A stretch of 64,000 nt of DNA from Rickettsiales bacterium (GTDB taxonomy: Bacteria; Pseudomonadota; Alphaproteobacteria; Rickettsiales; UBA998), in assembly GCA_024304995.1 (NCBI GenBank), contig JAMWZD010000004.1, positions 75,282 through 139,281 of the forward strand. Reading direction: 5' to 3'. A program made the translations under genes and the position numbers. The number at the start of each line of letters is the position of its first letter. Position 1 is the first letter of the stretch. This document shows, in pieces, positions 45,836 to 52,239 of the stretch. Below the pieces are notes generated by a model. That model was not told the DNA's origin and did no database searches. It saw nothing but the letters and a program-made list of their open reading frames with translations.

Positions 45836-47194
45836 ATGCAACAATCTAAAACGCACATCCTTTCTGGCTGGGGCAGAACGCCGCGCTATCTTTGCAAAAG
45901 CTGGCGGGCAGAACAGGTGCGTCACGCGGAAGATATCGTCACTCATGCATCAGAAGCGCTCATTGCGCGTGGCTGCGGTCGGTCATACGGCGATGCCGCC
46001 CTGCAACCAGATGGCGTATTGCATGTGCACCGAATGGACAAAATCCTCTCTTATGATGTGCAGACAGGAATCTTCACAGCGCAGTCAGGTGTGACATTGC
46101 GAGATATTATGCAGCGTTGCGTGAAAGATGGCTGGATGGTTCCTGTATTGTCTGGCACACAACATGTCAGCCTTGGCGGAGCGCTTGCCAGCAATATTCA
46201 CGGCAAAAATCACTATTGTGAAGGCAATATTGCAGATCATGTGCTGGAATGCAGCATCATGCTCGCCAATGGCGAAGTGGCATATTGCTCTCACACCGAG
46301 AACAGCGATTTATTTTACGCAACTGCAGGCGGCATGGGCATGACAGGGATTATTCTGGATGTCACATTGCAGCTTAAACGCATCAGCAGCACCACGCTTG
46401 AAAGTGCCACAAAGAAGGTGGATTCTTTGGAAGCGATGCTGGAATGTTTCGACACATCCAAAGACACTTCAGATTATATGGTCGGCTGGATTGACCATTT
46501 CGCCACAGGGAAAAAACTGGGGCGCGGTGTGTTTGAACGCGCTGTGCATCAGCATAATGGTGATGCCACATACCCTTTGCAGGTGCAGCCCCCCAAAAAA
46601 GCAAAGACTGTTCCAGACATTATCCCTTCTTTTTTGCTAAATCGTTACAGTATGGCGCTGTATAATCTGCTGCGGTTCCGCAAATATGACGAGGATTGGC
46701 GCGAAGAAATATCAGGATTTGAGCAATTTTTTCATCCGCTGGATAATCTGAATCACTGGAATAGATTATACGGCAAGAAAGGGTTCTATCAATATCAGTG
46801 CATTATTCCTGACAACAACAAGACGCTGGAACATATCACCCAGTTTTTGCAAACTATTCAGAAGAAACGGTGTTTTTCCTATCTGGCAGTGATGAAATAT
46901 CATCAGCCCCATCATTCCATGTTAGGGTTTGATATGGCAGGATATAGCATTGCGCTGGACTTTCCGAACGCTCCAAAATTTGTGGCGCTGCAAGGCGAAT
47001 TAAACCAGATGATCGCAGAAATGGGCGGGCGGGTTTACCTTGCAAAGGATGCGCTGCTGGAACGCAGATCATTTGAAGCAATGTATGCAGCAGAATTGGC
47101 AGACTGGAAAGCGGCTATCAAACAGATAGATCCCAATTTCCGTTTCCGCTCCGTTATGGCAGAACGACTAGGCTTTAAGGATGGTGCATCATGA
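45836..47194 (+). CDS. FAD-dependent oxidoreductase, DprE1-like (polyprenyl-phospho-ribose 2'-oxidase)
   Basis: 452 aa with full-length resemblance to M. tuberculosis DprE1 as I recall it. Matching blocks are [83 protein letters not shown] and RVYLAKD. Confidence 0.8.
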   Translation: [452 protein letters not shown]

Positions 47195-47889
47195 AACGGG
47201 CTTTGATTATTGGCGCAACCTCATCCCTTGCCGTCACTTTGTGTCGCAACCTGTCCGAAGAAGGCTGGACGTGTGATCTGCTGGGGCGCAATGAAGGTGA
47301 ACTGCACGCGCTGGCGGCAGATATTCTGGCACGCTACGGCATTGAAAGTCATATTATTTTAGCAGACTTAAGCGCTGCCCCCCCTGCCCTGAATTATGCA
47401 CCTTATCAGGCAGTGTTCATGCTGGCGGGAGCCATCAGCGATAATATCGCCACCTCTATGCAGGTGAATGTGACTGCACCTTGCGAAATGCTGCGCACGG
47501 CAGCTCAGAACATGCAGCAGCGTGGCATTGAGCAACGCAAGGAATGTCAGATTATTGTAGTCTCTTCCGTAGCAGGGGACAGAGGACGCGCCAGCAACTA
47601 TGTGTATGGCGCAGCAAAAGCGGCGCTCACAGCATTTGCTTCAGGGCTGCGCAACGAAATGCACGCTTACGGGATTCATGTGATGACGGTGAAACCAGGG
47701 TTTATAGATACGCCTATGACCTATCATATTTCCAGCCCGCTCATGGGCAGCCGCGAAACAGTGACGCGGGATATATTACGCGCGATGAAAAAACGAAAGG
47801 ATAGTATCTACACTCCATCCTTCTGGTATCTTATCATGCTGGTGGTGCGCAATATTCCTGAGCGTATCTTCAAACGACTTTCATTATAA
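47191..47889 (+). CDS. Short-chain dehydrogenase/reductase, DprE2-like
   Basis: 232 aa with IIGATSSLA and YGAAKAA. It has a 4-nt overlap with the DprE1-like gene, the same arrangement as dprE1-dprE2. Confidence 0.7.
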   Translation: MKRALIIGATSSLAVTLCRNLSEEGWTCDLLGRNEGELHALAADILARYGIESHIILADLSAAPPALNYAPYQAVFMLAGAISDNIATSMQVNVTAPCEMLRTAAQNMQQRGIEQRKECQIIVVSSVAGDRGRASNYVYGAAKAALTAFASGLRNEMHAYGIHVMTVKPGFIDTPMTYHISSPLMGSRETVTRDILRAMKKRKDSIYTPSFWYLIMLVVRNIPERIFKRLSL

Positions 47890-51429: not shown

Positions 51430-51819
51430 ATGATAAAAACACTCACCCAACATCGTTTTTTCAGATTCTTGCTGGTGGGGGGAGTATGCACACTCATAGA
51501 TTTTGTGCTGTTTTATATCTTACACATCATCATTCAATGTGATTTAATCCCCAGCAATATCGCATCCTATGGGACAGGGCTTGCCTGTGCGTTTTTCATC
51601 AACCGCTACTGGACATTTGCAGATAGCCAGCACCGAACAAGACTGCAATTCTGGGTTTCTCTTTTGCTGGGTTATTTTGGATTGATACTGAACACGGCAA
51701 TCATCTGGATTCTGGAAGATGATATGCATGTCATGCTGGCAAAATGCATTGCGGTGTTTATTGTGGTATTTTATAATTATTTCGGCAATAAATGGCTGGT
51801 CTTTAAGGTGAAACAATAA
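51430..51819 (+). CDS. GtrA-family membrane protein
   Basis: The track ORF starts at 51376. The ATG at 51430, 3 nt after the UbiA stop, gives MIKTLTQHRFFRFLLVGGVCTLIDFVLFYIL, followed by NRYWTF and NKWLVF, typical of GtrA. Confidence 0.8.
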   Translation: MIKTLTQHRFFRFLLVGGVCTLIDFVLFYILHIIIQCDLIPSNIASYGTGLACAFFINRYWTFADSQHRTRLQFWVSLLLGYFGLILNTAIIWILEDDMHVMLAKCIAVFIVVFYNYFGNKWLVFKVKQ

Positions 51820-52239
51820 ATGGAATATATAATTCTTCTTGCACTGACCTGGCTGTTCAATGGCAGCGCAAAATACGCTGTGAATATGTGCTTTCACGGC
51901 AGAAAAAATGCGCTGGGACTGGTGGGTTATGGCGGTTTTCCAAGCACACACACTGCCATTGTCAGTGCGCAGTTATTCTATGTCGGTATGCAACATGGAT
52001 TTAACCATCCCGCCGTGGCAGCGATCCTTGCGCTATTATGGGTGGTTGTGAATGACGCAACTTCCTTGCGCAAAAAAATTCAGGATCATGCACAGCATCT
52101 GAACAAGCTGGATGACTCGCGCAATCACCGTGAACGCATCGCACATCACTGGCGGGATATTGTGGGTGGATTTGCAATGGGCGCAATCACCGCCCTGATT
52201 TATGCCGAAATCATAAAAAAAAGCCTTCTAACATTTTAA
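51820..52239 (+). CDS. Divergent PAP2-family (acid phosphatase/vanadium haloperoxidase-related) membrane protein
   Basis: 139 aa with GGFPSTHTAIVSA and a C-terminal HHWRDIVGG. The start abuts the gtrA-like stop. Confidence 0.7.
   Translation: MEYIILLALTWLFNGSAKYAVNMCFHGRKNALGLVGYGGFPSTHTAIVSAQLFYVGMQHGFNHPAVAAILALLWVVVNDATSLRKKIQDHAQHLNKLDDSRNHRERIAHHWRDIVGGFAMGAITALIYAEIIKKSLLTF

Follow-up and report, generated by a model that had tools for sequence, protein, structure and literature searches.

A predicted D-arabinofuranose donor and transferase gene block beside rnpB in an uncultured alphaproteobacterium

The window analysed here is a stretch of 64,000 nucleotides from a Rickettsiales bacterium (contig JAMWZD010000004.1 of assembly GCA_024304995.1, positions 75,282 to 139,281). 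Between positions 45836 and 52239 it carries a block of seven genes which probably specifies a self-contained system for donor synthesis, flipping and transfer, decorating an extracytoplasmic glycoconjugate with D-arabinofuranose (D-Araf). Five of the genes are homologues of the mycobacterial genes Rv3790, Rv3791, Rv3806c and Rv3789 and of an Rv3807c-type phosphatase. An earlier reading made from the sequence alone (the sequence-only reading) had proposed these assignments, and profile and PDB matches bear them out. As it concluded, the pathway is still best read as making a donor in which D-Araf (or a related pentofuranose) is linked to polyprenyl phosphate. That account set aside the gene for a 605-aa membrane protein; it was right about the five donor genes but left the transferase out of the pathway. 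This gene is the most informative of the block, and its product most likely acts as the transferase for this donor.

All components of the block lie within 6.4 kb. The open reading frame (ORF) listing places the seven ORFs at the coordinates claimed before, and the motif strings cited for DprE1 and UbiA are all present in the translations. There are two co-directional units, dprE1-dprE2-GT-C and ubiA-gtrA-DUF212, and a gene for a 2-oxoglutarate (2OG)-Fe(II) oxygenase lies between them in antisense. The first two genes overlap by 4 nt, as noted previously, with the sequence ATGA, and the second is predicted from this overlap to be translationally coupled to dprE1. The stop codon of the second gene and the start codon of the 605-aa gene share one nucleotide (TAATG); gtrA and the DUF212 gene abut. 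A terminator-like hairpin at 52221..52246 (an 11-pair stem followed by a T-run; a match to the consensus only) closes the ubiA-gtrA-DUF212 unit.

The same seven genes are found in the same order and orientation in two metagenomic relatives, L002 and L001, whose DprE1 proteins are 68% and 65% identical to that of the window. The gene set is thus kept as a unit in relatives, a point that the sequence-only reading had put forward for checking. Two alphaproteobacterial loci with DprE1 at about 50% identity (L003 and L004) have the arrangement DprE1-SDR-(large membrane protein)-UbiA(-GtrA) and no oxygenase gene. Their large membrane proteins were considered as members of the 605-aa family; they do not match the family profile and belong to different families. 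In L003 an insertion sequence fragment (HTH_Tnp_1, HTH_21, rve; 14086-16145) lies between two GtrA-family genes, a local rearrangement of the module.

The first gene of the block (45836..47194, plus strand) encodes a DprE1-like FAD-dependent polyprenyl-phospho-ribofuranose 2'-oxidase of 452 aa. It matches PF01565 in Pfam (E=8e-22). In NCBIfam it scores 375 bits with NF053785, as against 79 bits for the runner-up family, the sugar-1,4-lactone oxidases. Residues 6-445 align with residues 18-465 of Mycobacterium smegmatis DprE1 (PDB 4aut, E=4e-72), with 35% identity over 436 aligned positions; cytokinin and lactone oxidases appear in the same search at E values of 1e-10 or worse. K404, H122, K124, Q319 and Q321 align with K418, H132, K134, Q334 and Q336 of the M. 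tuberculosis enzyme, which we take to be its catalytic and substrate residues. Ala373 occupies the position of M. tuberculosis Cys387, which is the covalent benzothiazinone site, a drug-target feature dispensable for catalysis. Homologues with alanine at this position would be expected to be insensitive to covalent DprE1 inhibitors.

The second gene (47191..47889, plus strand) encodes a DprE2-like short-chain dehydrogenase/reductase (SDR) of 232 aa (PF00106, E=8e-29). Its best PDB match is DprE2 (21gq_C, E=4e-21), restricted to residues 91-231, and its top NCBIfam model is the generic PRK07102 (216 bits). It has GATSSL at residue 8, SSVAG at 125 and YGAAK at 139 (Ser/Tyr/Lys catalytic motif). 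An SDR gene follows DprE1 directly in 28 fetched loci, and the DprE1-SDR pair is invariably adjacent.

The second unit opens with a gene for a UbiA-family protein of 285 aa (50570..51427, plus strand), a polyprenyl-phosphate 5-phosphoribosyltransferase of the Rv3806c type, also called polyprenyl-phosphoribose synthase (PPPRS). Its score with the decaprenyl-phosphate phosphoribosyltransferase model NF008978 of NCBIfam (209 bits) exceeds the cutoff of 207. It falls below the cutoffs of two sibling models (220 versus 234 bits for NF008977, and 165 versus 474 for another), and models of quinone, haem and chlorophyll prenyltransferases give 66 bits at most. Residues 4-281 match DPPR synthase of the M. 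tuberculosis type (PDB 8j8j, E=2e-39). The protein carries RPRQWTKN at residue 9 and the Asp-rich motif NDMYDIEED (NDxxDxxxD) at 56. The best matches of the flavoenzyme and of the UbiA protein are therefore DprE1 and DPPR synthase, and not lactone oxidases or MenA/UbiA, the clades which the sequence-only reading had named as a possible source of contradiction.

The next gene (51430..51819, plus strand) encodes a GtrA-family small membrane protein of 129 aa, a candidate flippase or hub for the lipid-linked sugar. It matches PF04138 over all positions of the profile (1-117 of 117, E=6e-24), and gtrA genes adjoin UbiA or DprE1 in L003, L091, L092, L093, L086 and L087. Flippase activity of GtrA/Rv3789 proteins is debated in the literature (10.1101/2020.04.19.049825). 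The last gene (51820..52239, plus strand) encodes a DUF212 'divergent PAP2' membrane phosphatase of 139 aa. It matches PF02681 (E=1e-21), and its score with the PAP2 profile PF01569 (22 bits) is under the cutoff of 27. PSTH is found at residue 41 and HWRD at 110. UbiA and DprE1 flank a DUF212 gene in a Desulfobulbaceae metagenome-assembled genome (MAG; L040) and in L001 and L002. From its position and this recurrence, the protein is a candidate polyprenyl-P-ribose-5-phosphate 5'-phosphatase of the Rv3807c type.

The third gene (47889..49706, plus strand) encodes the 605-aa integral membrane protein, a predicted arabinofuranosyltransferase. The protein has no match in Pfam, NCBIfam or the PDB (phmmer). 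A profile of 32 family sequences has no match in the PDB either, a search which takes in Emb, AftA, AftB, AftD and ArnT. No sequence homology is detectable to the named arabinosyltransferase families compared, which were Emb (GT53), AftA (GT85), AftB (GT89), ArnT (GT83) and the putative NoeP, GT136 and TfpW not being among these. An AlphaFold2 model built on the family alignment (pLDDT 92.3, pTM 0.92) consists of a helical membrane domain (approximately 1-365) and a beta-rich domain (approximately 370-605) which is predicted to be periplasmic. The top 11 Foldseek matches of this model in the PDB are all GT-C enzymes (the C-mannosyltransferase DPY19, STT3 of oligosaccharyltransferase, ArnT, the mycobacterial arabinofuranosyltransferases AftA and AftB, and Pmt). 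The modelled likeness to GT-C enzymes is at the level of the fold only.

Two features of the family alignment stand out. Asp31, in GLDASW (GLD31xSW in the family), is located in the loop that follows transmembrane helix 1 and is conserved in at least 90% of the sequences. The loop is acidic, with one Lys/Arg and four Asp/Glu. It is established that the catalytic Asp of GT-C enzymes sits in the first extracytoplasmic loop (PMC11127046). The most conserved stretch of the family is PRPVxQSYSAY at 396-406 (with the invariant PVPQSYSAY at 398-406), at the start of the periplasmic domain. If the protein is a transferase, a top-conserved motif that lies outside the membrane core, in the periplasmic domain, would suggest an unusual active-site architecture. 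A carbohydrate-binding role for the C-terminal domain was also considered and is not established; the highest-ranking structural match, which is not significant, is the carbohydrate-binding module of AlgX (probability 0.92, TM-score 0.24), followed by generic jelly-rolls.

The 605-aa protein is one of a very large family of membrane proteins labelled 'hypothetical', a family here linked to a lipid-linked pentofuranose pathway. A scan for the family motif in one genome per GTDB species gave 429 loci, 80 of which were kept for neighbourhood analysis. The closest homologue among the 429 loci is 29% identical at most, and a profile search of the whole library returned 10,758 family representatives, clustered at 50% identity. 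UbiA, DprE1 and SDR genes lie directly beside the homologue in 23-24 of the 80 loci, frequently in the order UbiA-DprE1-SDR-GT-C and in one direction. The linkage is strong evidence for functional coupling, because a stretch of 20 kb taken at random would rarely hold a DprE1 homologue. Linked taxa include Paraburkholderia, Janthinobacterium, Undibacterium, Legionella gratiana, Erwinia sp., Dyella, Crenothrix, Nitrospiraceae and Desulfobulbaceae, the linked locus of the last being that with DUF212 between UbiA and DprE1. Replicons of the cultured Rhizobium tumorigenes and Burkholderia stagnalis have a homologue annotated as 'hypothetical protein'; it adjoins genes annotated as 'UbiA family prenyltransferase', 'FAD-binding oxidoreductase', 'SDR family oxidoreductase' and 'GtrA family protein'. 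A distant metagenomic member (L005) lies beside UbiA, GtrA, SDR epimerases and a HAD phosphatase. Of the members without such linkage, one (L007) is found in a GT2-rich polysaccharide cluster.

It is conceivable, at somewhat less than even chances, that these proteins make up a large unannotated and unclassified GT-C family (in at least 429 GTDB species) for which polyprenyl-phosphate D-Araf is the native donor in a substantial fraction of members. If this is true, envelope glycans decorated with D-Araf would be far commoner in Proteobacteria, Nitrospirota and Desulfobacterota than structural chemistry records. Cultured carriers suited to finding the activity and the acceptor include Paraburkholderia, Legionella gratiana and Rhizobium tumorigenes. 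On the R. tumorigenes replicon pRt932 (L086, 74-16968), two consecutive large 'hypothetical' membrane proteins are encoded after UbiA-DprE1-SDR-epimerase-oxidoreductase-GtrA. One of the two belongs to the 605-aa family, and pseG, pseI, pseF, pseC and pseB follow directly. These pseudaminic-acid genes may hint at which glycan is the acceptor in R. tumorigenes.

All enzymatic steps of the proposed pathway are assigned by homology to characterised systems and by gene linkage. In the cytoplasm, UbiA would make polyprenyl-P-ribose-5-P; in a Gram-negative bacterium the lipid carrier is most likely undecaprenyl rather than decaprenyl phosphate. The DUF212 phosphatase would then take off the 5'-phosphate. 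Oxidation at C2' by the DprE1-like flavoenzyme, coupled to reduction by the DprE2-like SDR, would give polyprenyl-P-D-Araf, and the GtrA-family protein may help to present this donor at the periplasmic face. There, the 605-aa protein with its GT-C fold would move Araf to the acceptor. Asp31 in the first periplasmic loop is the putative catalytic base, and the beta-rich periplasmic domain with its top-conserved motif may share in substrate binding. The acceptor can be taken, as a default guess, to be a surface polysaccharide or lipopolysaccharide (LPS), a glycan rather than a protein. The window thus leads to the prediction of a D-Araf-bearing envelope glycoconjugate in an uncultured alphaproteobacterium.

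Several results weigh against this pathway. No acceptor-related genes are found in the window. The score of the DprE1-like protein lies below the equivalog cutoff of NF053785 (500 bits); for this reason the protein, as judged by its sequence, is best termed a DprE1-family homologue and not a proven equivalog. The alignment with DprE2 leaves out the N-terminal half of the SDR, and the score of the SDR with the NCBIfam DprE2 model NF053786 (124 bits, residues 87-231 only) is below the cutoff of 250. The GT-C assignment is built on a predicted structure, and the similarity to the GT-C matches is low (Foldseek probability 0.84-1.0, E about 1e-3, TM-score 0.26-0.41). The C-terminal domain modelled alone (pLDDT 90) has no significant Foldseek match. 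Approximately 70% of the sampled family members have no DprE1 or UbiA within 10 kb, which means either that the family uses other donors too or that the donor genes are elsewhere in those genomes.

Three-component pentofuranose systems have been described by Kelly, Duong, Nothof, Lowary and Whitfield (PNAS 2024; PMC11127046), with Citrobacter youngae O1/O2 as prototype and GT136 as the transferase family. They comprise a UbiA-type PPPRS, a small transporter and a GT-C, with DprE1/E2 homologues where the sugar is Araf, and are called widespread (PMC11127046). The block fits this scheme, and systems of this type are known already and are common among Gram-negative bacteria. Shared with it are a UbiA-type synthase and a phosphatase, a small transporter, a GT-C with a C-terminal periplasmic beta-rich domain, and DprE1/E2 for Araf. 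However, the phosphatase in the window is a separate DUF212 protein, whereas theirs is a fused HAD domain, and the transporter candidate belongs to the GtrA family, whereas theirs is assigned to the MATE family. The window transferase also differs in having no detectable sequence similarity to ArnT or to any Pfam GT-C, GT136 not having been compared. Real novelty potential is confined to the large unannotated GT-C-like family.

In Pseudomonas aeruginosa PA7/Pa5196, the five donor functions encoded by PsPA7_6245-6249 have been proven for D-Araf glycosylation of pilin (10.1101/2020.04.19.049825). That cluster resembles the block in its Rv3807c-like phosphatase, UbiA, GtrA-like protein (PsPA7_6247), DprE1 and DprE2, and the system likewise has a GT-C transferase. 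The same donor pathway could also serve a 605-aa GT-C that glycosylates a protein (pilin or another periplasmic or surface protein), as TfpW does in group IV strains. This alternative, which we consider unlikely, draws on the fact that the best-proven Gram-negative polyprenyl-phospho-arabinofuranose (DPA) system arabinosylates pilin via a GT-C (10.1101/2020.04.19.049825), on the presence of the protein glycosyltransferases STT3, DPY19 and Pmt among the structural neighbours of the 605-aa protein, and on a Flp-type pilin gene approximately 9 kb downstream in L001. However, tfpW is found beside pilA, with no linkage to the donor genes, whereas the window transferase is encoded inside the operon and has no pilin gene near it. 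The C-terminal domain of TfpW is a TPR domain and that of the 605-aa protein is beta-rich. Members of the family are also found in GT2-rich polysaccharide clusters (L007) and beside pseudaminic-acid genes (L086), which argues against a protein acceptor.

In rhizobia, noeCNHOP has been genetically implicated in arabinosylation of Nod factors (PMC5080398). The noeC(N)HOP genes of Azorhizobium caulinodans and Rhizobium sp. IRBG74 are like the block in encoding DprE1 (NoeC), DprE2 (NoeH), UbiA (NoeO) and a dedicated transferase in one operon. A noe example from Sinorhizobium alkalisoli (L091) lies next to nodABC; the window, unlike this locus, has no nod genes. At the noeP position, L091 encodes a 401-aa hypothetical protein that is presumed to be NoeP; no similarity between it and the 605-aa protein is detectable (BLASTP E=0.58; hhalign probability 0.1%). 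The three replicon loci inspected, of S. alkalisoli, R. leguminosarum and Cereibacter sphaeroides, have UbiA, GtrA and SDR genes beside DprE1, followed in each by a differing 'hypothetical' membrane protein. The R. leguminosarum and Cereibacter transferase candidates were examined as homologues of the 605-aa protein, and no convincing similarity was found. The donor module is common in Alphaproteobacteria and is paired with several unrelated transferases; these are the 605-aa family, NoeP, and the R. leguminosarum and Cereibacter candidates.

DprE1 homologues are present on 65 plasmids or chromids of PLSDB, 34 of them from Rhizobium; the other carriers include Sinorhizobium, Cereibacter, Azospirillum, Ruegeria, Salipiger and Agrobacterium. 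The DprE1-like protein has more than 7000 matches among database proteins, including many from alphaproteobacterial MAGs at about 50% identity. The statement that the pathway is known only sporadically outside Corynebacteriales does not hold in view of these numbers and of the description of such systems as widespread (PMC11127046).

The mycobacterial DPA pathway (Rv3806c, Rv3807c, Rv3790, Rv3791 and Rv3789, with Emb and Aft transferases) has a homologous enzyme for every donor step. The differences lie in the low identity (approximately 35%), in alanine at the position of Cys387, in a DUF212 protein instead of a classical PAP2, in a lipid carrier that is presumably undecaprenyl phosphate, and in a single transferase of an unrelated sequence family, which is like AftA and AftB at the level of the GT-C fold. 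An alternative is that the FAD-oxidase/SDR pair does not carry out 2'-epimerisation of ribose to arabinose, in which case the sugar would be ribofuranose or another pentofuranose derivative. Both enzymes are under the NCBIfam equivalog cutoffs, and the SDR resembles DprE2 in its C-terminal part only. In such systems the GT-C can act promiscuously, and other epimerases give Xylf (PMC11127046); extra epimerase or oxidoreductase genes are present in the related loci L086, L087 and L005. We nevertheless regard this as improbable, as the catalytic residues of DprE1 are conserved and the DprE1-SDR pair is never separated. The P. aeruginosa system makes D-Araf with a DprE1 that shares only 33% identity with the M. 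tuberculosis enzyme (10.1101/2020.04.19.049825); the window protein is 35% identical to that of M. smegmatis.

The sequence-only reading also placed the block at an acquisition hotspot formed by rnpB, a hicB remnant and tRNA-Leu. All three are present where it put them. tRNA-Leu is at 44979-45063, a HicB-like ORF of 92 aa at 45042-45320 (minus strand; a partial Pfam HicB match) and rnpB at 45337-45764 (minus strand). The match is limited to positions 1-80 of the model's 123, and the final 22 nt of the ORF are shared with the 3' end of the tRNA; 'hicB remnant' is a fair description. No hicA partner is seen. The fragment has the look of a scar left between tRNA-Leu and rnpB by an old insertion.

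A recently acquired island at this site is a poor explanation of the block. In its favour, the truncated hicB has deviant GC content at third codon positions (GC3; z = -2.8) and abuts tRNA-Leu, the gene content from tRNA-Leu to rnpB differs between the window and L001 (hicB in the former, three other small genes in the latter), the genes downstream of the block differ between the two, and many homologous clusters are plasmid-borne. However, GC, GC3 and the codon-usage index of all seven genes depart from those of 50 flanking genes by no more than 1.6 standard deviations in either direction, and neither these measures nor tetranucleotide distance give a signal of horizontal transfer for the block. 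Deviant GC3 (z about -2.8) is confined to the hicB remnant and the ORF at 52245-52619. No att-like direct repeats flanking the block and no integrase were found. The variable spot and the block lie on opposite sides of rnpB. This core gene lies between the block and the tRNA, and is immediately upstream of dprE1 and divergent from it in the window, L001 and L002, the latter two having DprE1 proteins only 65-68% identical to that of the window. The nearest named relatives of DprE1 come from Alphaproteobacteria, Rickettsiales or Pseudomonadota MAGs. In view of composition, the lack of repeats and the rnpB-dprE1 adjacency, neither the hotspot claim nor recent acquisition of the block is supported; an older transfer is possible.

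The alphaproteobacterial context assumed before agrees with the named relatives of DprE1 and of the 2OG oxygenase and with NuoD (10652-11860, minus strand). This protein scores 669 bits against mitochondrial NDUFS2, 612 against Paracoccus, 399 against Thermus and 306 against E. coli. The scores hint at a lineage near the mitochondrial/Rickettsiales-like part of the Alphaproteobacteria.

The antisense gene between the two units (49696..50517, minus strand) encodes a 2OG-Fe(II) oxygenase of the prolyl-4-hydroxylase type (PF13640, E=8e-20), with weak PDB matches to prolyl hydroxylases. Its true start is likely the ATG at 50478, giving a protein of 260 aa. Its HxD (147), His (212/214) and RxS (226) residues are all retained. 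The gene is found at the equivalent antisense place in L001 and L002. Three homologues with 55-62% identity occur as single genes in unrelated surroundings, in a Rickettsiales MAG, another MAG and Vibrio. Membership of the oxygenase in the pathway was dropped as the leading interpretation on the basis of these three contexts, which have no linkage. We conclude that it entered an ancestral dprE1-dprE2-GT-C-ubiA-gtrA operon in this lineage; it appears to be a passenger and is probably outside the pathway. That it functions in the system, for example by hydroxylating a proline of an acceptor protein that is later arabinosylated, as in plant hydroxyproline-O-arabinosides, is highly improbable: its position and antisense orientation are kept in three genomes and the Fe/2OG triad of this prolyl-4-hydroxylase type is intact, but its close homologues are stand-alone, it is missing from all other DprE1 and GT-C loci examined, it is transcribed separately, and it has no signal peptide and would therefore act in the cytoplasm. 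The oxygenase family is very large, with 55-64% identity across Rickettsiales and Blastocatellia MAGs, Sinomicrobium and Vibrio, and its members usually stand alone; such conservation suggests a conserved cellular target.

The flanks of the block are made up of housekeeping genes (nuo, ftsY, dapF, topA, polA, ispG, lysC, ruvB, sucB and lpdA), together with a cyclopropane-fatty-acid-synthase cluster and phaC. Amid the housekeeping genes there are three ORFs of 267-274 aa (17117-17941, 20102-20905 and 20874-21686, all on the minus strand) which have no Pfam or PHROG match. Directly downstream of the block, at 52245-53475 (minus strand), lie three small ORFs of 124, 121 and 90 aa with no match in Pfam, NCBIfam or PHROG. 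They are separated by perfect palindromes at 52624-52672 and 52635-52661. ORFs of similar size (125 and 89 aa) are found at the equivalent site of L002. Seven genes at 53805-60063 (plus strand) form a cluster which is kept in L002. It encodes an amine-oxidase-like flavoprotein, a DUF1365 protein, a cyclopropane-fatty-acid synthase, a chalcone-isomerase-like protein, an MFS/GPH transporter, a DUF3833 protein and an SDR; it is a lipid modification cluster in which several components are of unknown function.

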